DNA of 64,000 bases from Naegleria gruberi. Lineage: Eukaryota. Below, piece after piece: positions 3,001 through 53,757 of the stretch. How positions within the stretch are numbered: the stretch's first letter is position 1; the number at the start of each line of letters is the position of its first letter. Under the pieces are notes generated by a model. It was not told where the DNA came from, made no database searches, and saw nothing but the letters and a program-made list of their open reading frames with translations. The position numbers and the translations under genes are program-made. The DNA lies in the NCBI GenBank assembly GCA_000004985.1, contig GG738856.1, one strand, 5' to 3'.

Positions 3001-3600
3001 NNNNNNNNNNNNNNNNNNNNNNNNNNNNNNNNNNNNNNNNNNNNNNNNNNNNNNNNNNNNNNNNNNNNNNNNNNNNNNNNNNNNNNNNNNNNNNNNNNNN
3101 NNNNNNNNNNNNNNNNNNNNNNNNNNNNNNNNNNNNNNNNNNNNNNNNNNNNNNNNNNNNNNNNNNNNNNNNNNNNNNNNNNNNNNNNNNNNNNNNNNNN
3201 NNNNNNNNNNNNNNNNNNNNNNNNNNNNNNNNNNNNNNNNNNNNNNNNNNNNNNNNNNNNNNNNNNNNNNNNNNNNNNNNNNNNNNNNNNNNNNNNNNNN
3301 NNNNNNNNNNNNNNNNNNNNNNNNNNNNNNNNNNNNNNNNNNNNNNNNNNNNNNNNNNNNNNNNNNNNNNNNNNNNNNNNNNNNNNNNNNNNNNNNNNNN
3401 NNNNNNNNNNNNNNNNNNNNNNNNNNNNNNNNNNNNNNNNNNNNNNNNNNNNNNNNNNNNNNNNNNNNNNNNNNNNNNNNNNNNNNNNNNNNNNNNNNNN
3501 NNNNNNNNNNNNNNNNNNNNNNNNNNNNNNNNNNNNNNNNNNNNNNNNNNNNNNNNNNNNNNNNNNNNNNNNNNNNNNNNNNNNNNNNNNNNNNNNNNNN
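1..3600. other. assembly gap (run of N)
   Basis: 3600 consecutive n. It abuts a 99-nt tandem-repeat coding region, so the gap probably reflects unresolved repeat copies. Confidence 0.99.
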
Positions 3601-21200: not shown

Positions 21201-24200
21201 TTGTTATGGAGAATTTCTAACTTGGAAACAAACTCTGCTGATGAAATTAAGAAGATTGCCTTAGGCATTCCTTCATTGCTTCACTTTGTATGGATTTACT
21301 GGAATGAAAGAGTTTGGGAAAATACCTACAATACATCCATGTTTGAAAATTCTGATTCTACTGAAACTCCAGTTTCGAGAGATGATCTTGCTGGTCCAAA
21401 CAGATTATTCCAAGATGTTAACTCTGTGCACATTTTGAAATTGTTGAGTGGTTGGGAAAATATTCCTATTCGTTCAAGACATATCAAGATTGACCAACTT
21501 AAGAAGGTCGTACAATTCATTTGTACAAATGTTGATAATGTACAATCTGAAGAAGTAGATTGGAATAATCTTGTTTATTTGTATTGTGATACTTTGTTGA
21601 GTTTCAAGAAGAGCTTCCCAGAAGCATCTTTCCAACTCTTGTTAGATATTACTGATTCTTTGTGTGCAACTAAACAAGCTTCCGTCCAAGATCTTACTAA
21701 GATTATTGAATCATCAAATGATGGAAGATTGAAGGCTAAGAAAAATGATATCATTTCTGTTTGCAATCTCATTTGCACAAGAGATGAAGATAAGAATAAG
21801 GATTTGATGAATCGTGGTTTGGCTTGGTTAAAGTTGGGTGAAACTAGAATGAATTTGTTCATTCCAGCCAATTCTTTGGATCCAACTTTGAAGTATGCAA
21901 TTTATGATAAGCATCTCAAGGAAGATATTCAAGTTCTTCAAGGAAAACTTGAAATTATGACTTCTATTGAGCGTTTCATTAGCGGAAGTGGTAGAAATAT
22001 CATTTCTGACAAGATTGAAAAGGATATTACAAATATTCAATCAATTGTTGATAAGATAACTCCAAAGGTTATTAACAGACCAACTAATATTTCATTCATT
22101 GATATGTATCGTGAAATGAAGAGTTTGGCTGACCAACATGAAGTTATCAAGAACTTGTCTAATAGTTTGATAAAGTTCTTTGAAAGTGATAATGATGACA
22201 AGCAAGATATGGTTGCTGAACTTATCAATAAGGAAGAATCCTATCAAGCAAACAGCCACTCTCACATTAAATCAAAGATCTTGAAGAATTCGTTTGGTTT
22301 TGAAGATTTGGCATTGCCATTTGCTTCATCTGCTTATCATATCAAGTACGGTTTGAGATTATTATGTTATGGTTCACTTGCTAAGAAGGATGAGTCTGAA
22401 CAAAATACTGTCAATCAAATTTTGAACCATCTTCTCTCCTTCCCATCTTGTAACTCGGTTCAAACTATTGAAGATGATTTGGCTATCGTTCAACAATGGC
22501 TCAAGTCTATTGAAAACTCTGCCAATACACAATCCAAGTGTAAGCAATATGAAACAGCTACCAAGGTTTTGCGTGTCTTGATGTCCAGATGTTTGTTGAT
22601 TACAGTTTCTCAAACTTCCAGCCAAGACAATACAATCCATAACCTCCAATTATTGAACCAAGTTTTCGTAATGTACTCTAACTTGTTCGAATCTGTTGAA
22701 GATGAACTTGAAAAGAAGAAGGCTGAAGAAGACAACTTCTACAAGTACAAGGAAAGAAAGACAACAATCGAAACTGAAGAAGAAATTTTGGAAGAAGAAA
22801 TGGAAACCATGTTCCCAACTTATAGCGAAGATTATTCTCAATTCAATGCACCAACCGAGGAAAAGAATATTATGAATTTGTCAGAGAAGAAGGAATCCTT
22901 GATATCTGAAAAGTCACTCTTGGAAAGAGTTAACAAGGTTATTCATGATGAAAGAGAAATTGACTACTTGGTTCGTACTCACAAGGATATCTTCTCCTTC
23001 ATCTCTTCCTCTAGTCAACTTAGACCTGTTGATACTATTGACACTATTAGAAATAAGATGTTTGACGAATCCTTTAATGTAGCTGTTCATATCATTAACA
23101 CACTCAACGGAAAATACCAAATTGATATGACTTCTTCAGGATATCTTCCACTTGTTCTTTTCGGAAGTAGAGCATTGAATAATCTCTGGGTTAAGGTTGA
23201 TAATTCAAAGGAAGCTAAACTCAAGGCATACAGTGAAGTTTACACTGAACCAAATATTCCAGAAATTACTCTTGCTTTCAGCACTCTCTTCAGTATGCTT
23301 CAAAGATTGAACTTCTTGATCAAGAAGTACAGTACTGAAGAACAAAAGGGTCACCCAATCCTTGTAGAAATGGTCAAGATTATTGAACATATTCTCAATC
23401 AACCAATTACTAGTCCAATCATTAAGATTCTTACTGGTCTTGAATTAGTATTAATCAAAGCTGGTGAATGGGAAGAATATCTTACAGCTCATGTAAATTC
23501 TTTGAAGGATGAAATTAGAAAATTATCTGGTCTCATTATTAGATGGAGAAGAATGGAATTAGAAAACTGGAAGGGTATTTATGATTTGAAGAATAGAGAA
23601 TACAAGAACAAATCTATTAATTGGTGGTTCAGATTCTACAATATGATTTGTAATAGTAGTTTCAAGATGGAAGAACTCACCAAGATCATTGAAGACTTCT
23701 TTGGTATTTGTGATGACTTTATCAGAACATCAACCATTGGTGACTTTGAATATCGTCTTGGATTGTTGAATAACTTCTATCAACATTTAGCTGCAGAAAT
23801 TGAAAGAAAGTATTCTGATGATGTAGAAGTTAGAACTAAGATTAGAGATATTATTTTCAATTTGCACAAGTATTATTCTCAATTCTCCGGTAAGCTTGAA
23901 GAAAGACTTGACCAAGAAAAGCAACCTTTGGAAACTAAACTCAGAGACTTTATCACTCTCACTAAATGGGAAGATGTAAATATTGATGCCATCAGATTCA
24001 CAACTAAGAAGTCTAGAAGAGCCCTTGCTAAATTCTCTAAAGGTTTTGGTGAAGTTCTCGTCAAACCAGCTAGAGATTTGTGGGACAAGTATGATGAACT
24101 TGCTGCTGCTTCTGAAATTATCCAAGAATCTGAGAAGAAGCCTAAGAGAAAGAGCAAGAATAAGAAGATCAAGAAGAGAAAGAATAAGAAGTTTATTGCT

Positions 24201-27200
24201 GATGAACCAGACGACATTATTCAACAAACTATGAACAGAGGCAAGAATCTTATCAAGAGCCACGAATTTAAGAATTGTCTTTCATATACCAAAAAGGAAA
24301 AGGAATTGCTTTCTGTTATTGAAAAGGAATTTATGGAAGATTCCAAGAATGTTGTAGATAGACTTCCAGTTATTTATGAATTGGTTGGAAAGAACTTTGA
24401 AAACTTGATCATCAAGAGTGCTGTTCCAAAGGAATTTGATGCTGTAACAAGCAATATTGAAGATTTTAGTGTTGAAATTATTGAACAAACCCAACTTCTC
24501 AACAAGGAAAATTCTCCAAAGAGTATGAAATTGAGAGCTCTCGTTACTTTGTTGACAGAACTTAAGGAAATGGGCATTTCCTACTTGAAGAAGAGTGTTG
24601 GATCTGAAACTGCTATTGACAAGATTTTCCAAATTCCAGATGTTGGATTCTCATTGAATAACCTCACTTCAAATGATGTTCAAGAAGTTTTCAAGAAGGC
24701 TGATGACTATTACTTTAAGAACATTTTCAGTGTTCAAAACTTTAAACTCACCTTTGAAGGCGAAGTTTCTGGTGATATCAAGTCTCAACAAACCAAGATG
24801 AGAGGTTATCCAGACAATTTGTTCTTCCTCACAATGAAACACAGAAGAATCTTGGGTACTATTGAAGCAAGCCAAAAAGCTAATAAGTCTTTCCTTTCAA
24901 CCTTGAAACATTTGAAGCAAAGCTTTGAAAATGAAAAGGATGAAGGTGTTATCATTTCACAAAGCAAGGCTAGAGAATTGTTGAATGTACAATCAGGATA
25001 TGTCTTTAGACTCTATGAATTGGTTGCCCAAATCACTTCTCTATACACAGCTCTCTCAAAGCATGATAGTGCTTATGATAAACCTTTGAAGACTATTGAA
25101 GATGCCAAGAGTATCATTGATAGAAGCGTCGATCTTTTAGAAAGAATTATGAATAGAACTCAACTCTTCAGTACTAAGGATTTGAAGGAGCTTTCCGAAA
25201 ATCTCGAGACTTTGCAAAACGCTAGAGGTATTCTCAACAAGTTTGTTTCTGAAACCTCTGATCTTCCAAAATCAAAGGAATTGATTAGTCTTGTTGAAGA
25301 GTTTGATCAAGTCAAAACTACCTATGAATCAATTGTTGCAGAAGAAGCCAGTAATAACAAGTTTGATTTGGCTTCTATTTCATCATTTGCCAAGCTTTAC
25401 AAGCATGCTGTCAAGTCTATTCAATTGACTATCCAAGATTTGGTAAAGGCTTGCTCTGAAGAACAAGTTCAATATGAAGAAACTATGAAATCAGCCTCTG
25501 AAGAACTCAAGAATAGAAAGAAGGAAGATGATGAAGAAGATGACACTTACTCTGCTTCTTACTTGAGCAAGAATAACTCCATTCAAAGACTTGAAGAATT
25601 TATTGATAGATGTCATGGAGTTATCACTACTGGTTTGGCCAAGATTAACAAGGACATTTCTGGAATGATTGAATTCATCGTTGACAATAGTAAGAATTCT
25701 CAAAACATTACAAACAGTCTTACAGAATTGTTGAGTAACTTAGCTCCATTATTGCAAAGATTGGATGGTGTTGTTGATACCCTCAAGATTCCTCTTGTTT
25801 ATTATCACAAGAGTATTTCCAAACTCACTTATGTTCTCCTCAATATCTTCTCAACTTTGTGCAAGCAAGGTTTCTGTGGTAAGGATGACGAAGAACAAGG
25901 TGAAGGAGAAAGTGATGGTGTTGACTTTAGTTCTGGTACTGGTATGGACGATGGTGAAGGTATCAATGATATTGGTGATCAAATTGACAATGAAGATCAA
26001 TTATTGAACGAAAAGGATAAGCAACAACAAGAAGGTAATAAGGACCTTGAAAAGAACGATAATGCTATCGAAATGGACGGAGACTTTGAAGCTGAAAAGC
26101 AAGAAGTTGACGAACAAGAGGATGATGAGGAACAAGATCAAGATGAAGAACAAGATGAAAATAAGGAAATGGGTGAAATAGATGAAGATGATCCAAATAA
26201 GGAACAACTTGATGAAAAACTCTGGGACGAAAATGAAAATGACAGAGATGACAAGACTGAAGAAGGTTCCGATAAGAATGACAATCCTCAACAACAAGAT
26301 AGCGAACTTCAAGCGCAAGAAAATGAAAATGATGATCATCAACAAGATAATAGAAAGGACAAGCAAAAGAAGGATGACAAGCCAATGGAATACGAAGAAG
26401 ATGAAGAAGCTGTTGAACAAGAAGAATTCGAAGATAATATGGATGATAAATTCAATGATGAATTCCAAGACCAAGATAAGGATGGTGAAGATCAAGATGG
26501 AAAAGACAATGATCAACAAATGGATGATTTGGAAATTTCTGAAGATGAACAAGAAGGCGATGAAGAAAATCAAAATGAACAAGAAGGTGATGAAGAAAAC
26601 AAGGATGGTGAAGATAAGGAAGAAGGAGACAATGAAGATGCTGACGGTGATGAAGACTTGAAGAAGAAGAAGGATGAAGAAATTGATGAACAAGTTGACA
26701 CCGAAGATATCGCTCCAGAAGACCAAAATATTAGTGGACAAGATGAAGACAATCAAGATGCTATCGATCCAAACTTGGAATCTGAAAACAAACAAGAAAA
26801 GGACGAAGATGGCAATGATGACGAAGATGGTGAAAAGGAAAATGAACAAGAAGAGGAAGAAAAGGCCCATACTGCAGAGGAAGAAGCTGATTCTAAGGAT
26901 CTCAAAGAAACTCCATTTGGTGTTAAACAAACTGCTGGTAAAGCTTCTGATATTAAGGAAGATTCAGCTGAAAATGAACAAAGACAAGAAAAGAAGAATA
27001 ACAATGCTGAAGAAAGTGGTAAAGACACCAATAAGAATGAAATGGGTGAAAGTATGGATCAAGGTACTGATAATAATGCTGACCAAGAGCCAGAATCCGG
27101 CCAAATGCAAATGGATCCAAATCCTCTCAGAAGCTTGGGTGATGCCATGAAGAATTGGAAGAAGAAGCTCAACCTCGTCGAGAGAAACAAACAAGAAAAT

Positions 27201-28598
27201 GAAAAGAACAAGCAAGATGAAGGTGAAAAGAGCGAAGCTTTTGAGTTTGTTGAAGAAAATGATGCCGATAAGGACCAACAAGAAAATCAAATCTTGTCTA
27301 ATGCCACCGAAGAACAATCTAAGGAGTTCCCAGCAATGGAAGATGGCGAAGAGGATGATGAAGATGAAGAAATGACTGAAGAAAAGAAGAAGGATGAATT
27401 TGGTGAGGAAAAGAAGAAGGACGAAAAGGAAGGTAATAATGCCGACTCAAAGCCAAGTATTTCATCCAAGTTGGATAAGAAATTAGAACAAGACGAAGAC
27501 GAGGATGAAGATATGGAAGATATTCAATTTGAACCTTCAAATAAGAAGGTAGATTTTGTCCAAACCAACTTTGAAAGTACTATCCACACCAAGACTGAAG
27601 CTTTAGAAGAAGAAATTGAGACTGAAGAACCAGAAATTAAACCATTAAGTATGGATGACATTAAGATGATGAGAGAAGAGCTTGAATCATCTCTCAACGA
27701 ATGGAGAAATAATGAAGAAAATGTAAACAATAGTAAGGAAATTTGGAAGAAGTTTGATATTTTGACATCAAGCTTGTCTCAAGAATTGTGCGAACAATTA
27801 AGATTGATTCTTGAACCAACTTTGGCTACTAAACTCAAGGGTGACTACAAGACTGGTAAAAGAATTAACATGAAGAAGATTATTCCTTATATTGCCAGTC
27901 AATTTAGAAAGGATAAGATTTGGCTTAGAAGAACAAAACCAAATAAGAGAGATTACCAAATTCTTTTGGCTATCGATGATTCCAAGTCTATGAATGATAA
28001 CCATGCTGGTCAAATGGCTTGTGAAGCTTTAACATTGATTTCTAGAGCCATGTCACAACTTGAAGTAGGTCAATTAGGTGTTGTTAGCTTTGGTGAAAAG
28101 ATGAAATTGTTACATCCTTTCGAGAAACCATTCACTGATGAAACCGGTGCTGAAATCCTCTCTCAATTCACATTCAAACAAAATCAAACTCAAATTGTTA
28201 ACTTCCTGTCAGATACCATTCAACTTATGGAAAATTACAAGTCTATGGAATTCTCTAACAATAGCGAACAATATCAATTGGCATTTATTATTTCAGATGG
28301 TAGAATGTTAGAAAGAGATAGAATTGTTAAATTGGTCAGAGAAGGACAGGAAAAGAAGATTCTTTTCGTTTTCATTTTGATTGATAATCCAAATCCAAAG
28401 GATTCTATTCTCAATGTAAAGAGTATCAACTCTACTTCAGATCCAAAACAACCATTAACATTTAGTTATTATATTGAAAAGTTCCCATTCCCATTCTACA
28501 TAATTTTGAGAGACATTCAAACTTTACCTGAAGTCTTGGCCGATGCTCTTCGTCAATACTTTGAATTAATCAATCTCACTGCTAATGAACAAGTTTAA
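12249..28598 (+). CDS. MDN1: midasin (MDN1/Rea1), 5449 aa, single 16.35-kb exon
   Basis: Six AAA P-loops in order: GIIGSGKT (12948..12971), GETGVGKT (13965..13988), GPTSAGKT (15279..15302), GDTGTGKT (16152..16175), GSPGVGKT (17412..17435), GPSACGKT (18387..18410). About 560 aa of D/E-rich linker follow. The C-terminal VWA/MIDAS domain has LLAIDDSKSM (DxSxS at 27975..27989), and the tail EFPFPFYIILRDIQTLPEVLADALRQYFEL matches the conserved midasin C-terminus. A short upstream exon is possible (see findings). Confidence 0.95.
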   Translation: MDKLNNNNNTTDSNYDTINAITKILPLYPQFKTFIKQYFKDRPSLIESIVNNHQEDKIDQKQLITLLEITLRLLIFAPSDFCKMWNWSPFFSLLKHKNKDIKSLTSKCVSIILKLDDQFFNSKIDNLKTYVLEEIESEELVHLENTLSFYDDTETSNMETTTEETRDKLIISHKSDSMVNVCGVWLHKNLREIKSSQQNISADKTKLIFTKTSLENMRSLALGVAQENPIILEGIIGSGKTAYVEELARITGNTDLIKVNLDESFDSKDLLGTYVCTDVPGEFRWQPGALTKAVMEGRWILIEDLDLAPFDIISSIIPLVESGNLFLPSRDEIIPASTGFQLFATQSLVESLNGTTTRQRVLPMSNLWTKVRVNKLPSKEIEHILKVKFESIQQLIPKFIETYDALRSGHISDDSEKSEKQSSESTQLKSFGRLFSFRDLLKWCERVQRFYGQKIQKNQNYVLSQIKRDIFHEAIDVFCGMIAKHDIYDSVVGTLALVWEIYNYEEYLKTYKPQLHEEKGVITVGRISLERDEKNLGELLNKNSNFAHTKQSLRMMERVGACIKMNEPILLNGETGVGKTTAVQYLANLMGKKLLVHNLNQQTDSADFIGGYKPVDLKILAASVKSNFEQLFSVTFPSKENEVTLKKVRDLYTKKSWAQFIMMLNKIIDLADQKLSKVDEVVDEKLEEVDSKKRKKTQGSSSGTKKQKTSDKTSTLKQYWTKFKESVDKFNQQQILVQNSFAFSFVEGTLVKALKEGHWILLDEINLASTETLERLSSLLEGEEGTLFITEKGDTEPIKRHPNFRIFACMNPPTDIGKKNLPPGLRNRFSEFYVHELTDKDDLKIVVSRYLSTVPHPPVDDIVNFYLDVKKKSEAELSDGASQRPHYSLRTLTRSLDYAVFVMKDYGMERSLYEGFSMGFLTLLSSACSSTVEKMIRTCFFKQKNVDNSLKQAPSQPASGDFVLFKHFWLPQGQFAPEQPADFIITDTVEENLKNLARAIKTNKYPVLLQGPTSAGKTSMVQYLAKMTGHKFVRINNHESTDLQEYFGSYITNSQGKLVFQEGILVEAVRNGYWLVLDELNLAPSDILEALNRLLDDNRELFIPETQETVKPHPHFQLFATQNPPGLYGGRKVLSRAFRNRFLELHIDEIPRGELVTILHRRCQISNQHAEKLVSVMRELQQRRQSSKIFAGKSNITPRDLFRWAERMKGADEKINYNQNAAEEGFMLLAERLRRDEEKDIVKEILEKVFKTKLDLERMYNPKELDNLQVAGSTIVWTKTMKRMYVLVGKCLQFSEPALLVGDTGTGKTTVCQVYADIYEQHLRILNCHQHTETSDILGSLRPVRGREKLKIELEELIEEFITTANTKYSLDINFGNETSIGKKVKRLEDICKKLAKERKLAEPQKKKQKNEFKEKELLEKQLIIRDIYQKWKALFTWYDGPLVQSMKSGEIFLIDEISLAEDAVLERLNSVLEPSRELTLPERGSEKIESIVAHDKFRILATMNPGGDFGKRELSPALRNRFTEIYVPSLSVSEDLAIIVASKLDQSIKSFNTRMVEFVQFFKSKRTKRLLSVRDVISWVQFMNMAVAKLDMDAYGAFLHGVDTVILESIGVGTDSSAKNRLLLRKECFTFLLDKIAQENVLSTEQLEYYRDVFLNENYTAIRSNKTKESSEYFGYHPFYVKCGESSERKIVYALDAPTTGRNVMKVLRAMQLRKPLLLEGSPGVGKTSLISAIAKASGHNIVRINLSEQTDMMDLLGTDLPVEGSSGGQFRWCDGIFLRALRNGDWVLLDELNLASQSVLEGLNSVLDHRAEIYIPEINETVKCPEGFRIFACQNPLQQGGGRKGLPKSFLNRFTQVYVDELRPEDLTFILNSIHGDIGEENIKLMIDFNRKMHKETMELYRFGRKGSPWEFNLRDVFRWCELLKKERELNKDCTKPIDPMRMIDCMYKQRMRTVEDRKHVERVYKELTGKDFPCETNPTYTITPGAVQIGSSILLKNSSFDDSDKDNHAPSTSSQDLILLQSFLNPLENIMKCIEMNYLTIVNGPSACGKTSIVRLIAQMTGNMLSEFSMSSSTDTVELLGGFEQVDPIQKVRKIASFIKIKIDELARIAFLNDENLRFDALKLLYNQWTTYDATAKKDASFSGIEQLKSMCETLFDNLEYQSDEKQAIIQQLDNLSKLLEMGVKGRFEWNDGVLIRSLEAGNWILIDNVNFCNPTVLDRLNSLLEPEGVLVVNERGLVDGEIRIVKPHPHFRIFMVMDPKYGEISRAMRNRGIEISMFPITIPSQDAFTLLANNGVPSAHLCNVLMDYHAKFTQKIFLPEEDRPTIRDLLRCAEVFNSEVKQGLNITNAFKAAISCVYIRSRCSSKSAVDIAESELEECAKQLPRNDHGFPSTFVAANAFKCDKSLFRTVFRQSARLYDIIRNYLSLKVAESNDHNDSTKKLLDSLKWKILVTDLPPHFLQTNDVEKTIISADVMDTSSTSNLINDMQYALEYFIDVSSFKDIDIRVIWLQRLLTLCKSDKILEELLTKGIELLNTRKGCEVSKKIQKIFKNMQQTVTQRFSEIIASQPMNLKYSEQLFARLQYLGLINEQDNYVFDAATILTSQQKRKYEEQQSIAVEFQGTIVENKSSLLHQSYYYHLNPKHRSTAPNRVVVHLYTLFVQIDELVDAIMNSKVDESVCSLDDISGMLRCRDKLWFYLSHTAELSEEFFIYWNWLAKEFLKVKVKKPATSGKKKNISETPYGLYEQLCTFMGEIDGLVISNFNSVGKKNTLYKNCGKPTISLSVELKEIEDTITNYLSVNTSSNTESKELKQLVYNAMSTVKLLQQEPNHPDQEKLLQYVRTVPELLEKAKPKEQEISEDVYTPYKELATKSEQELVMDKIFRDIAEFTAPDKKHINAASLHSTQAISPLFDYKSMHHEMNVVTLLSKIGYILKRLDASSDVKEIKRLLSTAVAKGRHLIDFILQNCSRGPLDLVPYQLLLWRISNLETNSADEIKKIALGIPSLLHFVWIYWNERVWENTYNTSMFENSDSTETPVSRDDLAGPNRLFQDVNSVHILKLLSGWENIPIRSRHIKIDQLKKVVQFICTNVDNVQSEEVDWNNLVYLYCDTLLSFKKSFPEASFQLLLDITDSLCATKQASVQDLTKIIESSNDGRLKAKKNDIISVCNLICTRDEDKNKDLMNRGLAWLKLGETRMNLFIPANSLDPTLKYAIYDKHLKEDIQVLQGKLEIMTSIERFISGSGRNIISDKIEKDITNIQSIVDKITPKVINRPTNISFIDMYREMKSLADQHEVIKNLSNSLIKFFESDNDDKQDMVAELINKEESYQANSHSHIKSKILKNSFGFEDLALPFASSAYHIKYGLRLLCYGSLAKKDESEQNTVNQILNHLLSFPSCNSVQTIEDDLAIVQQWLKSIENSANTQSKCKQYETATKVLRVLMSRCLLITVSQTSSQDNTIHNLQLLNQVFVMYSNLFESVEDELEKKKAEEDNFYKYKERKTTIETEEEILEEEMETMFPTYSEDYSQFNAPTEEKNIMNLSEKKESLISEKSLLERVNKVIHDEREIDYLVRTHKDIFSFISSSSQLRPVDTIDTIRNKMFDESFNVAVHIINTLNGKYQIDMTSSGYLPLVLFGSRALNNLWVKVDNSKEAKLKAYSEVYTEPNIPEITLAFSTLFSMLQRLNFLIKKYSTEEQKGHPILVEMVKIIEHILNQPITSPIIKILTGLELVLIKAGEWEEYLTAHVNSLKDEIRKLSGLIIRWRRMELENWKGIYDLKNREYKNKSINWWFRFYNMICNSSFKMEELTKIIEDFFGICDDFIRTSTIGDFEYRLGLLNNFYQHLAAEIERKYSDDVEVRTKIRDIIFNLHKYYSQFSGKLEERLDQEKQPLETKLRDFITLTKWEDVNIDAIRFTTKKSRRALAKFSKGFGEVLVKPARDLWDKYDELAAASEIIQESEKKPKRKSKNKKIKKRKNKKFIADEPDDIIQQTMNRGKNLIKSHEFKNCLSYTKKEKELLSVIEKEFMEDSKNVVDRLPVIYELVGKNFENLIIKSAVPKEFDAVTSNIEDFSVEIIEQTQLLNKENSPKSMKLRALVTLLTELKEMGISYLKKSVGSETAIDKIFQIPDVGFSLNNLTSNDVQEVFKKADDYYFKNIFSVQNFKLTFEGEVSGDIKSQQTKMRGYPDNLFFLTMKHRRILGTIEASQKANKSFLSTLKHLKQSFENEKDEGVIISQSKARELLNVQSGYVFRLYELVAQITSLYTALSKHDSAYDKPLKTIEDAKSIIDRSVDLLERIMNRTQLFSTKDLKELSENLETLQNARGILNKFVSETSDLPKSKELISLVEEFDQVKTTYESIVAEEASNNKFDLASISSFAKLYKHAVKSIQLTIQDLVKACSEEQVQYEETMKSASEELKNRKKEDDEEDDTYSASYLSKNNSIQRLEEFIDRCHGVITTGLAKINKDISGMIEFIVDNSKNSQNITNSLTELLSNLAPLLQRLDGVVDTLKIPLVYYHKSISKLTYVLLNIFSTLCKQGFCGKDDEEQGEGESDGVDFSSGTGMDDGEGINDIGDQIDNEDQLLNEKDKQQQEGNKDLEKNDNAIEMDGDFEAEKQEVDEQEDDEEQDQDEEQDENKEMGEIDEDDPNKEQLDEKLWDENENDRDDKTEEGSDKNDNPQQQDSELQAQENENDDHQQDNRKDKQKKDDKPMEYEEDEEAVEQEEFEDNMDDKFNDEFQDQDKDGEDQDGKDNDQQMDDLEISEDEQEGDEENQNEQEGDEENKDGEDKEEGDNEDADGDEDLKKKKDEEIDEQVDTEDIAPEDQNISGQDEDNQDAIDPNLESENKQEKDEDGNDDEDGEKENEQEEEEKAHTAEEEADSKDLKETPFGVKQTAGKASDIKEDSAENEQRQEKKNNNAEESGKDTNKNEMGESMDQGTDNNADQEPESGQMQMDPNPLRSLGDAMKNWKKKLNLVERNKQENEKNKQDEGEKSEAFEFVEENDADKDQQENQILSNATEEQSKEFPAMEDGEEDDEDEEMTEEKKKDEFGEEKKKDEKEGNNADSKPSISSKLDKKLEQDEDEDEDMEDIQFEPSNKKVDFVQTNFESTIHTKTEALEEEIETEEPEIKPLSMDDIKMMREELESSLNEWRNNEENVNNSKEIWKKFDILTSSLSQELCEQLRLILEPTLATKLKGDYKTGKRINMKKIIPYIASQFRKDKIWLRRTKPNKRDYQILLAIDDSKSMNDNHAGQMACEALTLISRAMSQLEVGQLGVVSFGEKMKLLHPFEKPFTDETGAEILSQFTFKQNQTQIVNFLSDTIQLMENYKSMEFSNNSEQYQLAFIISDGRMLERDRIVKLVREGQEKKILFVFILIDNPNPKDSILNVKSINSTSDPKQPLTFSYYIEKFPFPFYIILRDIQTLPEVLADALRQYFELINLTANEQV
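25870..27540 (+). repeat. low-complexity D/E/K-rich linker inside the midasin CDS
   Basis: GAA/GAT/AAG-dominated sequence. It generates the long F/I/L-rich and S-rich antisense ORFs in the six-frame track (for example 26001..26930 minus). Confidence 0.9.
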
Positions 28599-30739: not shown

Positions 30740-31867
30740 TTATTTATTCAAATACTTAACTTCCTGAGTCAATTTACAAGTGTAATGATGAGCAGATTGA
30801 TAAGACTCATATTTAGTCCACCCACTCAATTTAAACTTGTAATATCCAACATCTATCACACCCGTGTAATTACATCCGTAAACACTTGAGGTTTCTGCCA
30901 AAATCTGAATCCCATAATTGCCATATTTGCTGTTTGATCCTACCAGTCCAATTAAAGAGCTATCTGTTGCTATCGTATGGTTATTGTAATACCACCTACA
31001 GCGATATCTATCGGATAAGGTATCAGCTCTAAAGAATATTCCAAATCCAACCCTTCTAACACTTTTATCCGAATTTGTTGAGTTTCCAGATTTAAGATTT
31101 TCAAAATGTTTGGCCAAATCTGAAGGCATGCACAGTTTGTAAATATGTTTCAAATTCTTTGGAATAACTCCACAACTCTCTGCAAAATGGCTCACATCAA
31201 ATATAAAGGCATGTTCACTATTATCCATTTTTCCAATTACAATATATCTATCAAGTGATTCCTTTTCCTCATTGAAATAATTAGTTTTCAGCTTGAAGTA
31301 AACTTGATGATTATCATGATCGATAATCGTTATAAGAGAATTGATAATTTCCTCTTCATTCTTCAATGCATAATTTGTGAATTTGCTCAGCTCTGAAATT
31401 GAATTACTATAATTGAAACAAATCTCAATTCTTAAAGTATCAATAGGCATGCATTTCTCTGGAAACAATACCTTGTCCTTCTCGACAGAACAAGGTCTTG
31501 CTACTTGACCAACCACCAATGGTTGCGAATCTTGACACGTGAAGGTCACATTAAACATGGCATTTTCTCCTGTATTAATTTCCTTGCACATATCCATCAC
31601 ATTCTTTACTCGATCATAAATATCACTTGATCTAGTAGGCATTCCAATGTTTTCTCGTGAATTTTTCTTTTTAAATTGCATGGTAGGAATGTCAAGTTTC
31701 AATTTAATTAAATCTTTCAACATGGATGTGAATGATTCCGAATGTTGATATGAATTTTCCACTTTTCTTGATGATGGTCTTGNNNNNNNNNNNNNNNNNN
31801 NNNNNNNNNNNNNNNNNNNNNNNNNNNNNNNNTTGGATGATACTTTGGAGTTAAATAGAACTCTCAT
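30740..31867 (-). CDS. hypothetical protein (contains an assembly gap; N-terminus uncertain)
   Basis: A 375-codon ORF spans the 50-N gap at 31783..31832. No recognisable motif. Confidence 0.4.
   Translation of the reverse strand: MRVLFNSKVSSXXXXXXXXXXXXXXXXXXRPSSRKVENSYQHSESFTSMLKDLIKLKLDIPTMQFKKKNSRENIGMPTRSSDIYDRVKNVMDMCKEINTGENAMFNVTFTCQDSQPLVVGQVARPCSVEKDKVLFPEKCMPIDTLRIEICFNYSNSISELSKFTNYALKNEEEIINSLITIIDHDNHQVYFKLKTNYFNEEKESLDRYIVIGKMDNSEHAFIFDVSHFAESCGVIPKNLKHIYKLCMPSDLAKHFENLKSGNSTNSDKSVRRVGFGIFFRADTLSDRYRCRWYYNNHTIATDSSLIGLVGSNSKYGNYGIQILAETSSVYGCNYTGVIDVGYYKFKLSGWTKYESYQSAHHYTCKLTQEVKYLNK
31783..31832. other. assembly gap (50 N) plus a single n at 31891
   Basis: A 50-N run is the usual placeholder for a gap of unknown size. 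Confidence 0.95.
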
Positions 31868-48310: not shown

Positions 48311-49468
48311 ATGCCAAGAGAAGTTTATGAAGGAGAAGGTGGTGCCTCATTCGGTGGAGATGAAGCTGATACAGGAGATTTTGATAAGGGAAGATGGCTG
48401 GATAGTGTATTATTTGATATGAACATTGATCCAATGATTGAATTGGGAGAGAGTGAACATCCGAATACAAGCTTATTTGATGATCATTCTGATATTTTGG
48501 AAAAGATCAAGGATCAAAACGCCTTTAGAGTTGCTCCATACTCTGGAACACCAATGCCAAAGGTTAATCCTGAGAGTGGTGTGTTACTCTCTGGAAAATA
48601 TGCTGAAGAAGACTTGAAGGTTTCCTTCAATCCAAGTTTGTTTGATATTTGCAAATTTACATTCTTCCTTAGAGTATTTGTTGATGCTGAATCAGAAAAC
48701 GTTGTAACCTTTGGAGAATCATACAGATGGTTGGGTTTATTCAAGAATAGACTTACTTTCAATAATCAAGATCAAGCTGTGCAAATCAATGCCATTATGG
48801 ATAATGCATGGAATGAAGTCATGTTGAGCTTTTCTTATGATCAGGATTCAAACTCGGGAAATTGTTTATTGATTGTAAATGGAAAGGAATATGATGCTCC
48901 TTTGAAAGAACCTCTTAGTATTCTCAGTGCAGGAGAAAGAACAATTAGCTTTGATAGTGGATTCTCCTTTGTAAATTATTCAAATGCAAGATGTTTTAAG
49001 GGAATTGTTGGAAGTGCAATCATGCTCAACCAACCATGTACAAGCTTCTCAGAATTGAAGCAAGTTGGTGACTTCTTGCTCGCCAATCACAAGAAGCCAG
49101 TAGATTCTTATGCATCAGCAAAGGATGTCAAGATTGATGTTGCAGAACCTGTTCACATTGAATCTGAAGACGAGTATAATAAGATTGTGAAAAAGAATAG
49201 ATTGCTTGTTCTTGACTTTTTTGCTACATGGTGTTGCCCTTGTACATCAATTGCTCCTAAATTTACTCAATTGGCAAACAAGTATAAGGATGCTGTTTTT
49301 GTAAAAGTTGATGTTGACCAACAACCTTCAATCATGTCAAGATATGAAGTGAACTGTATGCCAACATTCGTCTTTATTAAAGATGGAGCAGTAATAGATA
49401 GATTGGAAGGTGCTGACTCCAAGACTCTTGAATCCAAAGTTAAATCATTGGTAGAGCTTTTACAATAA
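48311..49468 (+). CDS. thioredoxin-domain protein with an N-terminal 270-aa domain of unknown type
   Basis: C-terminal 105 aa is a thioredoxin fold: LLVLDFFATWCCPCTSIAPKF...VFVKVDVDQQP...CMPTFVFIKDGAV. The active site reads WCCPC rather than WCGPC. The N-terminal domain is unrecognised. Confidence 0.65.
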   Translation: MPREVYEGEGGASFGGDEADTGDFDKGRWLDSVLFDMNIDPMIELGESEHPNTSLFDDHSDILEKIKDQNAFRVAPYSGTPMPKVNPESGVLLSGKYAEEDLKVSFNPSLFDICKFTFFLRVFVDAESENVVTFGESYRWLGLFKNRLTFNNQDQAVQINAIMDNAWNEVMLSFSYDQDSNSGNCLLIVNGKEYDAPLKEPLSILSAGERTISFDSGFSFVNYSNARCFKGIVGSAIMLNQPCTSFSELKQVGDFLLANHKKPVDSYASAKDVKIDVAEPVHIESEDEYNKIVKKNRLLVLDFFATWCCPCTSIAPKFTQLANKYKDAVFVKVDVDQQPSIMSRYEVNCMPTFVFIKDGAVIDRLEGADSKTLESKVKSLVELLQ

Positions 49469-49613: not shown

Positions 49614-51911
49614 TTAATTTAATTGGAAACTTCTGCTCAATATTTCTTCTTCTCGCAAGTGTTGTTTGAATTCCGCCAGCTTGTTTCTCAAACTTTTGAT
49701 GGCTTGAATCTTTCTAACCAAAATACAATCTAAGCTTGTTACATATTTGTCTATTGTTGATTGAGGTTGATCAACATCGTTCAGTAATTCCATTTCTTGT
49801 TTCATTAATTCCATAATGTCATCAATATGTTCTCTGTGTTGGGCAATAACCTCTTCTTCCTCGTCTAAAATCTTACTGATTAGTTCTTCGTGAGCTCTCT
49901 CAAGTTCTGCCTCTCCTACATCTTGGAAGTGAGGAGGTAAAACAACTTCATTATTTTCTTGCATAATATCGGCATCATCAAAATCTTCATCATCTAAATC
50001 TTCGTCCACAATGTTATCAGAAGTCTCATAGTCTTGTTTATCATAATCCTTAATATCATATTCTTGCTTATCATAGTCATCCATTTGCATATCATCATCT
50101 TCAACTTGATAATTATCAACTTGATAGTTATTATTCACTCTCATTTGGTTATTGATATTTTGATTAATGTTCATATTTTCGAACACTGGTTGTTGGGGTT
50201 GAGGAGTAGGAGTGAGATCTTGCCTTGGTTTAGCGGCAGCTTTACCATTTCCACTTCTGAGTTCTTTAACTCTGTCAGCATATCTCAATGTATTCAAACT
50301 GTGTTCGCACGAATTAGAAGATGGTGAGGCATTAGCAATCATTACAGTCTTGGAGTTTCCTATAAAAGAATCTTTCAATACTTCTGTCAGTTTGCTTCCT
50401 CTGAATGGAACGTGACTCTTACCACGATCCAAAGATCTAATACATTCCTTAAGTGCCAACAAACTCTTATTGATATCAGCACCTTCCAACCTTGTTTGCT
50501 TGTCACTGTTCTTTGTATCAGCACCTCGTTCAGAACCAGCAAGATCTATGAATGAGAATTTACCATATGGCTTATCATTGTACTTTAAAACAATTTGTAA
50601 TATAGCATGGGAACGTGAGGAGTCAGAGTTAGCACCAGTTGAACCAGTAGCTCTGATGGAAAGACCTGTATCTATCATACCCATCAAATCTTCTACACTA
50701 TTTACACTATTTTCTGTCAATCCGCAAATACTGACCATATTCTTAGCATCTTCACGAGCAAATACCTTCTTTCTATTATTCAACAAATCAAATAATTTAC
50801 CACCATAAATTTCATAAAAACTGATCCAAACACTCAATTCTGACGAGAGTCTTTGAAAAATGTCACTAGCAGCAAGTAAATATAAACCCTTTTGTCCATT
50901 TTTACCCATCATGGTAAATGTTTTACCACTTCCTGTTTGTCCATAAGCGAAACAAGTGGCTTTACCCTTATTGAAAATGTGATCAACAAGTGGTCTAGCA
51001 GTCTTATTATAAATTTCAACGTTATCACAATATTCATCAAATATTTCATCAAAACAGAATTGATGTTTTTCTACAAATTTTGTAAGATCGACTTTTTGTT
51101 TAGGTTCGTGTATAATTAACTCGTTATCATTTACAACTTCCAAAATATCAGTTTCACCTCTATTCTTTTCGTTATCATTAAGAGGTCTTTTACGAACAGC
51201 AACTACAATATTTGATCTTTGTCTTTTGCCAGCTGCTGGTGGTTGAGCTTGTTGCTTATTAATGATATTATTATTATTGATAATGTTATTGTTGTTGCTA
51301 ACAACATTAACCATTGGTTTACGAGGTTGTTCTTGTACAACAGGAGTTGATTTCACTGGATTCCTTACTACTTTTGGTTGAGCATTATTTTGTTGCATAA
51401 TTTGTTGGAGTGATTGTACTTTTGGAGCTTGGAATTGAGGTTGAGAAGATGCTGGTCTCTTATTGACCACATTATTATTGTTAACTTGATGGACTTCAAA
51501 GGCATCGAAATTGGTATCGTTATTGTTACCCATATTATTCACGGCAGCATCCCAATCATAGAGTGATTCTTCGGCATTGCCATAATTTTCTTTCTCATCA
51601 TCAACAAATGCCTGTGCTTTAGGATTCAAATCTAAAGCAGGACATCTATTGAGTGCCATTTGTTCATTCTCAAAATTTCCACCTGATGATGAAGATGATA
51701 TATTTTTCTTGGCCACTTGTATTAGTTCAAAGAATTTTCTTCTATCTCCTCCGTTGGATACACCAATTTTATTGGCGACATCTTGTACTGATAGCTGTGC
51801 AATAGCTTCAATACTGGTTACTCCGTTTAATTTTAATTGAGAGTAGTAATGATCGAGTGAAGCCTTCTCGAGATATTTAAACAATACAGAAGAGGCGCTC
51901 TCTGAAGGCAT
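49614..51911 (-). CDS. kinesin-13 with an N-terminal SAM domain (KIF24-like)
   Basis: The central motor has the kinesin-13 KVD loop ([24 protein letters not shown]) and the P-loop [21 protein letters not shown] and [11 protein letters not shown] are present, and the motor is internal, which is typical of kinesin-13. The N-terminal 70 aa ([56 protein letters not shown]) fit a SAM domain, as in centriolar KIF24 (from memory). Confidence 0.8.
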
Positions 51912-51961
51912 AATGATGTTACTTCAATTTTTTTTTAATATTTAGAATTTGGAGGTTTAAA

Positions 51962-51974
51962 TTTTGGCGCCAAC
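51962..51974. promoter_or_regulatory. E2F-like palindromic site TTTTGGCGCCAAC, about 50 bp upstream of the kinesin-13 ATG
   Basis: The same 12-mer TTTTGGCGCCAA recurs at 62922..62933. Its GC-rich palindromic core matches the TTTSSCGCSAAA E2F consensus. Confidence 0.45.
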
Positions 51975-52141
51975 TTGTTTTGTAACGTTGTATTGAATTG
52001 CCCCGCCTAAAATAATTCATTGAGCATCGAAATAGATTCTTCATTATCTGTATTATCTCAGTAGGCCAATTCATGAAATTGGAAGAATTTTTCAATGTGG
52101 TTTTATTTACAGGTGTCCTAGAGGTGTGTTATTCGTTTGAT

Positions 52142-53294
52142 TTACTTTTGCAATTTGCTCAATGCAACACCTACTGTGAAACCACTGGCAAGCATTGATG
52201 CTACACCAATCATTCCACCAAAACTCAAATTAGCCATTTGGGATAAACCTTGTCCAGAAGTGCAACCATGTCCAGCTCTTGCACCAAAGAGTAATAAGAA
52301 ACCAGATGCTATAGCCCAGCACTTTTCCTTATTACTGAGCTTCTTTGGTTCAGCACGAGTACCAGCAAGATAGGAGGAAAAATAACTTCCTCCAACAATG
52401 CTCAAATCAGAAATCAATTGCCACAAATATTTAGCACTCTTTGAGATTGTGAATCTTTCAAAGTACTCTTGCTCAACTGGCAAGTATCTAGTAATAAATG
52501 TTACTGCAGTAACAAATGCGGACGAAGTTCCCAACGTAGTTTTACAAATTAGATTAACTGGTACTTGGAGAGCTCCCAAAGCAAGACCAGAATAAATTGG
52601 GTGCCATTGTCTTCTCTTGAGGAGACACTTTTCAGTACTGATGAGATCAGTCTCTGGAGTTGGAAAGAGCTTTTCCAAAGTACAAGCAATACCAACAAGC
52701 ATTGTACCTACTGGCAATGCAATGCTCCACATTGGTTTACCAAGAAGTCCATGAAGAGTATTGAATGATCCTGGAACTTCTGTGGATTCCAATAAACTGT
52801 TAACAGTAGGATTATTGATCACAATTCCATAGACAGTAGCTCCAATAATACCACCCAACAAAGTATATAAAGAAGATGGTACACCTTCACCAGCTTGGGC
52901 CAAAACTATTAATTTCCAAATCAAAATCAGCATTCCAAAAAAAGAGAACTGTTAAATCACATACTCACAAAAAATAGTAATACTAACCTGTACCAGGACA
53001 TGCACCTCCTAGAGCCATTCCAACACCCATAATAGCACCTCCAGAGATTGTACTTCTGAGATTAATATTAATTGGGGAGAGTGTTGCAACACCCATCAAA
53101 TCCAACAAACCCAAAGAAATTGTACTTGCTCCCGAAGCAGACAAGAAGGTCTTCATCATGGACCAACTTTTTAGAGCCATTTGGTTCTTAATATTTTCAG
53201 GAGAGGACATTCTACTCTTTTGCAAAATTATACCAAAAGCAAGACCTTCTGGAATACCAACACTGATGGCAGCAGTACAACTTGGACTAGACAT
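52142..53294 (-). CDS. YeeE/YedE-family (sulfur-transport domain) membrane protein-like, 2 exons
   Basis: Exons 53294..52988 and 52948..52142; intron 52949..52987 (GTTAGT...CAG, 39 nt). The join is in frame: ...GGACPGTG|VLFFGMLILIW... Polytopic and hydrophobic. Two copies of the family hallmark G-x-x-x-G-x-C-x-x-G, near the end of each half (GMALGGACPGTG and GARAGHGCTSGQG). Confidence 0.55.
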
Positions 53295-53757
53295 TTTTTA
53301 TCTTTTTGCTTAAAATTGTTTTTGTGTGGTTGTTTGAGCATTTATCTGAAAAAGAGACTGTCAAGTTTTCTTTGGTCCGTTTTAAATGTTCGTCGCAAAC
53401 ATGATGTTGATAATGACCATGATTGGCCATGTCCATAGCGGCGAATTAAGGAACACTCGAGAGGACTAGGATTGAAAACACAGTGTAGTAGGTACAACAT
53501 TAGAGGTGAAGTTTAGAGATGTATCTTTTGTTGTATCGATTAAGATTTAAGTTCATTCTCGTTATTAGTTACTAACATACAAGTTAATAAGAAAACAATG
53601 TGAATACACCTTCGGAAGTATCATCACTACAAAATATTTGATTGGATGACAAATGTTGTAGAGAAATGGATGATGCAATCCATACAAGTTGAAAAGAACA
53701 AGTAAATTCAACGGTTTCCTATTTTTTTATTATTTAAATATTTATTATTTAAAAAAA

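Follow-up and report, generated by a model that had tools for sequence, protein, structure and literature searches.

An intron-containing nuclear gene of Naegleria gruberi for a predicted single-chain, two-cysteine membrane protein of the YeeE/YedE family

The window analysed in this work is a stretch of 64,000 nt from contig GG738856.1 of the Naegleria gruberi assembly GCA_000004985.1, and it carries on its minus strand a gene for a protein of the YeeE/YedE family, the features of which are collected in Table 1. Judged from its sequence, the locus is the already known and annotated N. gruberi nuclear gene NAEGRDRAFT_64961, consisting of two exons and one predicted intron of 82 nt; the spliced product of 356 aa is letter for letter that of RefSeq XP_002679831.1 (UniProt D2V7Y0). 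The product of exon 1 is the N-terminal part of the N-half of the protein, as far as the first cysteine loop.

Table 1. Positions of the gene, its exons and intron, and the codons of key residues within the window
Feature	Position	Strand	Details
YeeE-family gene (NAEGRDRAFT_64961)	53294..52142	minus	ATG at 53294, TAA stop at 52144-52142
Exon 1, 307 nt	52988..53294	minus	codons 1-102 and first base of codon 103; from ORF list and splice enumeration
Predicted spliceosomal intron, 82 nt, phase 1	52906..52987	minus	donor CAG/GTTAGT, acceptor AATAG/TT
Exon 2, 764 nt	52142..52905	minus	remainder of codon 103 to codon 356, and TAA at 52142-52144
First cysteine loop, GGAC99PGT (G96-T102)	52989..53009	minus	C99 codon 52998-53000; phmmer alignment to 6LEO
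Second cysteine loop, GHGC317TSGQG (G314-G322)	52247..52273	minus	C317 codon 52262-52264; alignment to 6LEO
Ser30 codon, in L-Q-K-S-R-M-S30	53205..53207	minus	third-cysteine position per alignment to 6LEO

The single GT-AG intron of the gene lies immediately past the first cysteine motif, and a TAG stands in frame directly after the intron donor. When the donor CAG/GTTAGT was held fixed, enumeration of the possible splices left the 82-nt intron (52987..52906) as the sole GT-AG candidate to bring the exons back into frame, and it was chosen for this reason. The resulting junction, GGACPGT-VLAQAGEG, aligned without gaps to the sequence CPGTVLAQxGxG found in all homologues as well as to YeeE of S. 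thermophila (StYeeE). An intron of 39 nt, as proposed in the first-pass annotation of this DNA, did not hold: a splice from 52987 to 52949 throws the sequence out of frame, so that a stop is reached after 122 codons, and was discarded on that account, and the AG at 52949 that would act as its acceptor is situated upstream of the T-rich tract of the intron. The same annotation had described a duplicated motif, GGACPGTG and GHGCTSGQG. Both cysteine motifs are indeed present, but the last G of GGACPGTG is absent from the mature protein, since its codon arises only when the donor site is read as coding sequence (GGT followed by TAG); the mature residue is Val103.

That the gene is genuinely nuclear, as had been proposed from the outset, was confirmed by the following features: (i) the predicted spliceosomal intron; (ii) a host-like codon usage, with a GC3 of 0.28 versus 0.23-0.32 in the neighbouring ORFs and a correlation of relative synonymous codon usage (RSCU) with the pooled neighbours of 0.94; (iii) eukaryotic genes on either side, encoding a kinesin with a SAM domain and an EH-domain protein, which flank the gene directly, and a thioredoxin-domain protein and midasin; and (iv) orthologues in N. 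fowleri and Willaertia. The alternative that bacterial DNA contaminated the assembly, or that the gene is a pseudogene in decay, would have nothing in its favour beyond the prokaryote-rich name of the family, and its probability is practically negligible in view of the intron, the eukaryotic neighbours on both sides and the host-like composition. The gene is moreover intact in two strains: the contig from the second strain (97.9% identical) carried 8 synonymous changes and a single non-synonymous one within the gene, with indels in the flanks and none in the exons or the intron, and every family-invariant residue is kept.

A search with the Pfam profile Sulf_transp (PF04143; the family is also listed as COG2391 and DUF395) returned a match with a score of 211.9 bits (cut-off 27; E 2e-62); this match is far beyond chance and spans residues 26-344 of the protein and positions 1-308 of the 310 in the profile. 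The AlphaFold2 model (pLDDT 88.5, pTM 0.87) displayed the predicted YeeE hourglass fold, with approximately nine TM helices and short helices past four buried loops, and when this predicted model was submitted to Foldseek, the only significant PDB fold matches were the YeeE entries 6LEO, 6LEP, 8K1R and 8J4C (TM 0.72-0.80, E 1e-10). The full-length profile match and the fold matches of the predicted structure thus bear out the initial assignment to the YeeE/YedE (Pfam Sulf_transp) family. StYeeE (PDB 6LEO/8K1R) and E. coli TsuA share with the Naegleria protein the Pfam family and the predicted hourglass fold (TM 0.73-0.79), the single chain in N-then-C order, an alignment along the whole chain and the equivalents of C91/C293. 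In contrast, sequence identity amounts to ~19-25% (~21% to E. coli TsuA), the scores are below the TsuA cut-offs, Ser30 takes the place of C22/C25, and the gene is eukaryotic, intron-containing and without an adjacent YeeD/TsuB partner.

The alignment to 6LEO equated the first cysteine loop with loop LB and Cys91 of StYeeE, and the second with loop LD and Cys293. Ser30 falls in the column of the third, cytoplasmic-side cysteine (Cys22 in StYeeE, Cys25 in E. coli YeeE), so that the Naegleria protein possesses one conserved cysteine per half, C99 in the N-half and C317 in the C-half, and no third. This pattern is general: in an alignment of 96 sequences the C99 column held Cys in 95, the single exception being an unreadable X, and the C317 column held Cys in all 96, whereas the third-cysteine column held Cys in none of the eukaryotic sequences and in 1 of the 58 prokaryotic split-pair sequences. 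Among the eukaryotic homologues C99, P100 and G101 are invariant, as are G316, C317, T318, S319 and G320 in the homologue alignments.

At the subfamily level, no NCBIfam model claims the Naegleria protein; the TsuA/YeeE models NF041049 and NF052577 gave 60.8 bits against a cut-off of 400 and 39.7 against 645, respectively, which is below equivalog level. Because these scores lie far under the cut-offs and the third cysteine is a serine, the protein is, on sequence grounds, not a TsuA/YeeE or YedE equivalog. We consider it unlikely that it is the functional equivalent of bacterial TsuA/YeeE, importing thiosulfate for sulfur assimilation and passing it on to a TusA-like YeeD/TsuB. The same predicted fold and the retention of both central cysteines would agree with such a role, and in StYeeE, where C91 and C293 are essential, the C22A variant remains active and still complements (PMC7449682). 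Against it stand the low TsuA scores, the low identity to E. coli TsuA, the replacement of the YeeD-contact residue R98 by Gln106, and the result that no TusA-like YeeD/TsuB partner is adjacent to or fused with the gene at this locus. Furthermore, Cys22 lies at the YeeD interface (PMC11073785), and this residue is Ser in Naegleria and absent subfamily-wide. TsuA-type thiosulfate transport is not assured, because the third cysteine of E. coli YeeE is essential and Ser is no substitute for it (PMC7449682). A selenium-related transporter of the YedE/FdhT type is very improbable: weak NCBIfam matches to seleno_YedE and selen_YedE_FdhT were recorded, but these models (TIGR04112, NF033796) reached 29 bits versus 200 and ~24 bits (24.3) versus 350, with only ~130 residues matching, out of register, to the other half of the profiles, a consequence of the internal repeat.

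The best matches to the Naegleria protein are all eukaryotic and single-chain. Homologues were found within Discoba in the form of an N. gruberi paralogue (67% identity) and in N. fowleri, Willaertia, the jakobid Andalucia and the euglenozoan Ploeotia; in Amoebozoa (dictyostelids, Physarum, Phalansterium, Mastigamoeba, Clydonella and Flabellula); in Fungi (chytrids and many Pezizomycotina); in the choanoflagellate Hartaetosiga and the echinoderms Acanthaster and Patiria; and in Rhizaria (Foraminifera and one Cercozoa metagenome-assembled genome). Plants, vertebrates and budding yeasts did not occur among the eukaryotic matches listed. The suggestion of a rare eukaryotic lineage has therefore to be abandoned, the family being broadly eukaryotic, an outcome that had been named beforehand as speaking against it. 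By its alignments, the Naegleria protein is a member of a eukaryote-wide, single-chain, two-cysteine subfamily. A supposedly prokaryote-only family is hence widespread in eukaryotes, and the gene itself had already been deposited with its Pfam assignment. The occurrence of YeeE-like proteins in some eukaryotes is stated in PMC11073785; literature searches combining Naegleria with YeeE, PF04143 or Sulf_transp returned nothing on eukaryotic members.

In prokaryotes, the nearest sequences among the matches listed are 'long' split pairs, in which the two halves of the protein are encoded by separate genes. From the best 80 GTDB loci, whose ORFs were extracted under the guidance of tblastn matches, 73 gave a pair of adjacent ORFs in which a C-like ORF lies upstream of an N-like one, and none gave a single-ORF full-length match. 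The halves correspond to positions 172-309 (C-like) and 1-155 (N-like) of the Pfam profile, and PGAP names the upstream C-half a YeeE/YedE family protein and the downstream N-half a DUF6691 family protein; some long pairs are annotated as YeeE/YedE (thiosulfate transporter) family protein plus DUF6691 family protein. Examples were found in Elioraea tepidiphila, Rhodoplanes, Xanthobacter and on a Cupriavidus plasmid. Identity to the Naegleria protein is 35-47% for the N-half and 30-38% for the C-half, and the pairs share with the eukaryotic proteins the motifs LEKSRVFEP, GACPGTVLAQ, WSPY..G..IGLLQIP and GGCTSGHG as well as the two cysteines without a third. They differ from the one-chain, N-then-C Naegleria protein in consisting of two polypeptides, ~172 and 208 aa long, of which the C-like one is encoded upstream of the N-like one, and are themselves uncharacterised. 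With respect to their neighbours, a Cupriavidus long pair overlaps a rhodanese gene, a Thalassobaculum pair adjoins flavocytochrome c sulfide dehydrogenase, and directly after a Xanthobacter pair lies a Pyr_redox_2 oxidoreductase gene, the start of which overlaps the end of the downstream N-half gene. This sulfur context is anecdotal, since the largest neighbour family shared by the alpha-type pairs occurred in 4 of 39 loci.

To place the eukaryotic sequences, bootstrapped, distance-based neighbour-joining trees were computed on ~330 columns, with a prokaryotic sample that was seeded with motifs from the eukaryotic alignment and drawn from the matches listed. A reduced set of named taxa was used because a 235-taxon tree left the deep eukaryotic nodes with near-zero support and contained one Clydonella transcript as a rogue taxon. 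Among the prokaryotes thus sampled, the sister group of the eukaryotes consisted mostly of alphaproteobacterial long split pairs (94% for eukaryotes plus alpha-type pairs), and the eukaryotes alone were recovered with 80%; in a neighbour-joining tree of the C-half only, the eukaryotic clade was not resolved. The internal groupings of this clade mostly match taxonomy, with bootstrap values of 100% for Heterolobosea, 100% for Dictyostelia, 98% for Pezizomycotina, 78% for Fungi and 56% for Heterolobosea plus Andalucia, and the two N. gruberi copies appeared as sisters (94%).

These results do not bear out the horizontal acquisition, at least as a recent transfer, that the first-pass annotation had put forward. 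The idea that the Naegleria lineage recently acquired a YeeE/YedE gene from bacteria could draw on the numerical dominance of prokaryotes in the Pfam family and on a mean identity to the Naegleria protein that is slightly higher for the alphaproteobacterial pairs (36%) than for the non-heterolobosean eukaryotes (32%); the latter difference fits the alphaproteobacterial branches, which are much shorter than the eukaryotic ones. Such a transfer is extremely improbable, given that the best matches are eukaryotic single chains, that the nearest prokaryotic relatives among the matches listed are split into two genes, that Naegleria groups within Heterolobosea and beside the jakobid inside the eukaryotic clade, that codon usage cannot be told apart from that of the neighbouring genes, and that orthologues and a paralogue exist. 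Taken as a whole, the explanation we favour, and hold with good confidence, is that of an ordinary gene, old in eukaryotes, which was inherited within Heterolobosea, without recent transfer, and duplicated specifically in N. gruberi.

As to how the gene first reached eukaryotes, its patchy distribution could be the trace of multiple separate transfers, either out of alphaproteobacteria or from one eukaryote to another, rather than one acquisition of mitochondrial or pre-LECA age followed by losses. Points in its favour are that monophyly of the eukaryotes reached only 80% neighbour-joining bootstrap and was not resolved by the C-half alone, the near-zero support of the deep nodes in the 235-taxon tree, the absence of plants, vertebrates and budding yeasts among the matches listed, and the placement of Ploeotia, which likewise belongs to Discoba, apart from Naegleria. 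On the other hand, all eukaryotic members have in common the single chain in N-then-C order, whereas the nearest prokaryotes among the matches listed are split and have the reverse gene order, and the groupings from Dictyostelia to Heterolobosea plus Andalucia follow taxonomy; we therefore regard independent transfers as rather unlikely. As a tentative proposal, one possibility among others, the eukaryotic single-chain, two-cysteine YeeE may constitute one ancient clade derived from an alphaproteobacterial split pair (YeeE/YedE plus DUF6691) that became fused with swapped order, a candidate gene of the mitochondrial endosymbiont that would have been present in an early eukaryote, lost many times, and would allow thiosulfate or sulfane sulfur to cross a eukaryotic membrane. 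The sister position of the mostly alphaproteobacterial split pairs and the common fusion turn this into a testable hypothesis on the source of a eukaryotic YeeE-type channel for sulfur species. If true, free-living, sediment- or soil-dwelling eukaryotic lineages would possess an uncharacterised membrane route for thiosulfate or sulfane sulfur, and the further question is raised of whether the channel is involved in the handling of sulfide, thiosulfate or persulfide.

With respect to function, the model predicts a polytopic membrane protein of 356 aa with the YeeE/YedE hourglass fold and re-entrant loop-helix motifs in each homologous half; two of these loops would carry the invariant C99 and C317, the counterparts of the cysteine pair that S. 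thermophila YeeE cannot do without. By analogy, the Naegleria protein likely passes a small inorganic sulfur species, such as thiosulfate, or sulfane/zero-valent sulfur in a form such as polysulfide, across a membrane. The species would presumably be relayed by the two pore cysteines; the third cysteine, by which bacterial TsuA contacts YeeD/TsuB, would have no part in this. The assumed substrate and direction derive from relatives with ~20-40% identity, because all characterised members are non-eukaryotic. Among these, the full-length single-chain alphaproteobacterial proteins SoxT1A and SoxT1B of Hyphomicrobium denitrificans, a YeeE-like sulfur importer and a signal transducer of the same family that we compared by description only, have three conserved cysteines and are encoded in sox/shdr clusters (PMC11582611), unlike the Naegleria protein. 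A two-cysteine logic like that of Naegleria is found, by description, in PmpA/PmpB of Serratia and in YedE1E2 of Cupriavidus pinatubonensis and Sinorhizobium meliloti, where each half has a single essential Cys and a third is absent. PmpB is the counterpart of the N-half and PmpA that of the C-half, and each of the two proteins contains one cysteine (PMC11582611); the split YedE1E2 imports zero-valent sulfur, for which both cysteines are essential (PMC10812762). These systems consist of two polypeptides of ~130-144 aa per half and are without the central helix, as opposed to the single Naegleria chain. The YedE1E2 pair on pSymA of S. meliloti gave no tblastn match to the Naegleria protein at E<=1e-3. 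A short pair from Cupriavidus campinensis matched it weakly, with 29 and 35 bits, compared with 49-72 bits (N-half) and 31-38 bits (C-half) for the long pairs.

On the minus strand, the ATG at 53294 opens a 103-codon ORF that ends in ...GGACPGTG followed by a stop, and a second ORF (52933..52142) carries on in a different frame. The first-pass annotation had called a 39-nt intron at 52987..52949, a misreading: this intron cannot join the ORFs because the spliced frame hits a stop after 122 codons. Enumeration of GT..AG donor/acceptor pairs left, for the strong donor CAG/GTTAGT, an 82-nt intron (52987..52906; acceptor AATAG/TT) as the sole frame-restoring choice. The resulting 1071-nt CDS encodes 356 amino acids, and its junction, GGACPGT-VLAQAGEG, aligns gap-free with CPGTVLAQxGxG in every homologue, and also with YeeE of S. 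thermophila (StYeeE). Of the two cysteine motifs originally described, GHGCTSGQG was correct, while the last G of GGACPGTG came from read-through of the donor site. The product is identical to RefSeq XP_002679831.1 / EFC47087.1 (NAEGRDRAFT_64961, UniProt D2V7Y0; a neighbouring ORF is NAEGRDRAFT_64958), which makes the window a Naegleria gruberi scaffold and shows that the public model already has the 82-nt intron; both the gene and its assignment to the family are likewise in public databases. The single N. gruberi intron lies at codon 103, phase 1, whereas in the N. fowleri orthologue the only intron is 58 nt long and interrupts codon 315 (phase 2), immediately ahead of the second cysteine motif; intron positions are thus not conserved within the genus.

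Its composition, its neighbours and the substitution pattern in a related strain establish this as a real, selected nuclear gene. The GC3 of 0.28 and codon usage (RSCU r = 0.94 against 16 pooled neighbouring ORFs) are host-like, and an EH-domain protein is encoded nearby in addition to the products listed in the table. An environmental metagenome contig (ENA ERZ929261, run ERR1078381, PRJEB11402) matches positions 51147-53710 with 97.9% identity and hence derives from a closely related strain; the CDS differs by eight synonymous substitutions and one non-synonymous, and the exons and intron are indel-free, with indels in both flanks. A prokaryotic gene caller had cut the contig's gene at the intron into two ORFs of 103 and 253 aa. 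Runs of N, i.e., assembly gaps, occupy positions 1-3600 of the window (the first 3.6 kb without sequence), 31783-31832 and 31891.

Coordinates of neighbouring genes in the window and of homologous loci elsewhere
Feature	Sequence	Position	Strand
Midasin (MDN1)-type protein, 5449 aa, uninterrupted ORF; multiple AAA_5, midasin AAA lid and C-terminal VWA domains	window	12249-28598	+
385-aa protein with C-terminal thioredoxin domain; adjoins kinesin gene	window	48311-49468	+
Kinesin motor with N-terminal SAM domain and long Asn/Gln-rich linkers; immediate downstream neighbour	window	49614-51911	-
N. fowleri orthologue	L002	8001-9141	
Example of a prokaryotic split pair	L003	2992-3510 and 3530-4159	
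Cupriavidus plasmid locus	L086	3474-4600	

The proposed YeeE/YedE family assignment was borne out by an end-to-end match to Pfam Sulf_transp (211.9 bits; cut-off 27). In a PDB fold search, the AlphaFold2 model built with 16 homologues (pLDDT 88.5, pTM 0.87) matched only YeeE structures (6LEO, 6LEP, 8K1R and 8J4C; TM 0.72-0.80, E ~1e-10), the next matches having TM <0.2. Residues C99 and C317 align with C91 and C293 of StYeeE, whereas Ser30 stands where TsuA-type proteins have a third cysteine (StYeeE C22, E. coli YeeE C25). Identity to E. coli TsuA is ~21%, and scores fall far below the cut-offs of the NCBIfam equivalog models for TsuA (60.8 vs 400; 39.7 vs 645) and YedE (29 vs 200; 24 vs 350). 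The protein is therefore a YeeE/YedE superfamily member outside both characterised full-length subfamilies.

In StYeeE, four buried loops make a thin central region in which C293, C91 and C22 are aligned in a row; C91A and C293A are inactive and C22A still complements, whereas E. coli YeeE needs all three cysteines (PMC7449682). StYeeE C22 sits on the contact surface with YeeD, a TusA-like partner (PMC11073785). Four motifs of the Naegleria protein match these loops (KSRMS30SPE, GGAC99PGT, LGTSS and GHGC317TSG), and residues conserved across the eukaryotic alignment concentrate in and around them (P32, I35, Q38; C99, P100, G101, Q106; G228, S230; G316-G320, G322). Two cysteines, not three, are found throughout the subfamily, eukaryotic proteins and split gene pairs alike; the split YedE1E2 pair is a zero-valent sulfur importer that requires both of its cysteines (PMC10812762). 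The Naegleria protein is best read as a putative channel or transporter for a small inorganic sulfur species; C317, followed by C99, would lead this species through, with no hand-off cysteine of the YeeD type. No obvious presequence was seen in the sequence or the model, the N-terminus leading directly into the first helix.

The suggestion of a rare eukaryotic lineage did not hold, since the family proved to be broadly eukaryotic. The best matches were a second N. gruberi copy (67% identity), N. fowleri (61%) and Willaertia (47%), followed by dictyostelids, an echinoderm, a chytrid and ascomycetes. A profile search and exhaustive phmmer over 1.84 billion representatives added Discoba (Andalucia, Ploeotia), Amoebozoa (Physarum, Phalansterium, Mastigamoeba, Clydonella, Flabellula, Synstelium), Fungi (many chytrids, very many Pezizomycotina), other opisthokonts (Hartaetosiga, Patiria), Rhizaria (Elphidium, Nonionella, Bolivina, a Cercozoa metagenome-assembled genome) and transcripts in the MMETSP marine-protist collection. 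That some eukaryotes carry YeeE-like proteins is already stated in PMC11073785. Most of the 150 top representatives are single chains of near-full length, and in a tree of 235 taxa those lacking a taxon name joined named eukaryotes, with a single exception. That sequence, P0149, was placed with alphaproteobacterial pairs; it is a transcript-like contig of 41% GC and is probably eukaryotic. Extra modules in some eukaryotic homologues included an N-terminal GNAT acetyltransferase (P0052, Heterostelium album), a cyclic-nucleotide-binding domain by precomputed annotation (P0072, Siphonaria sp.), two Sulf_transp stretches in 689 aa (P0152, Phlyctochytrium planicorne) and a long N-terminal extension (P0148, Elphidium).

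In a scan of GTDB with one genome for each species, the best of the prokaryotic matches listed were mostly from Alphaproteobacteria (Elioraea, Rhodoplanes, Xanthobacter, Thalassobaculum, Bradyrhizobium, Hyphomicrobiaceae, Rhodospirillaceae), with a few others, among them a Parachlamydiales metagenome-assembled genome. Of the 80 best loci listed, none held a full-length match in a single ORF and 73 had two adjacent ORFs, C-half-like upstream and N-half-like downstream. In the closest, mostly alphaproteobacterial loci listed, the upstream gene (~172 aa) matches residues ~198-354 with 30-38% identity and the downstream gene (~208 aa) residues 5-184 with 35-47%. They cover Pfam profile positions 172-309 and 1-155, and in NCBI's PGAP annotation they appear, respectively, as 'YeeE/YedE (thiosulfate transporter) family protein' and as 'DUF6691 family protein'. 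The eukaryotic proteins, in contrast, are one chain, N then C, the reverse of the gene order in the pairs. The correspondence of the paired genes to the two halves agrees with that published for PmpA (C-half) and PmpB (N-half), which have one cysteine each (PMC11582611), although the pairs found here are longer. One Cupriavidus plasmid carries a short pair (144+144 aa) alongside a long one (175+199 aa), and the Naegleria protein is nearer the latter. Some long pairs have sulfur genes beside them: that of the Cupriavidus plasmid overlaps a rhodanese gene, that of Thalassobaculum adjoins flavocytochrome c sulfide dehydrogenase, that of Elioraea an SLAC1/TehA anion channel, and in Xanthobacter the start of a pyridine-nucleotide-disulfide oxidoreductase gene overlaps the end of the downstream (N-half) gene. 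No neighbour conserved across the loci was found.

Bootstrapped neighbour-joining trees, the only kind built, were computed on 330 columns for a set made up of 34 named eukaryotes, 36 alpha-type pairs (their halves joined N then C) and 25 further prokaryotic sequences. Eukaryotes plus alpha-type pairs grouped at 94%, eukaryotes including P0149 at 80% and alpha-type pairs at 75%; P0045, a bacterial single-chain form, fell outside the clade that unites eukaryotes and alpha-type pairs. For these three groupings the N-half alone gave 97%, 76% and 56%, respectively, and the C-half alone did not resolve them. Within the eukaryotes, Heterolobosea, Naegleria and Dictyostelia each received 100%, Pezizomycotina 98%, the sister pairing of the N. 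gruberi copies 94%, Fungi 78% and Heterolobosea plus Andalucia 56%. A horizontal acquisition, as initially proposed, is not supported: these groupings and the single-chain architecture common to eukaryotes rule out a transfer specific to Naegleria, and they favour a single old acquisition followed by vertical descent and many losses, though several older transfers may lie behind the eukaryotic distribution. The protein is 36% identical to alphaproteobacterial sequences vs 32% to other eukaryotes, which fits short bacterial branches. What retains mild interest is an uncharacterised, eukaryote-wide, fused two-cysteine subfamily with apparent alphaproteobacterial affinity. The Parachlamydiales pair (L032, 36% GC), from a group of amoeba-associated bacteria, forms a long branch inside the mostly alphaproteobacterial sister group.
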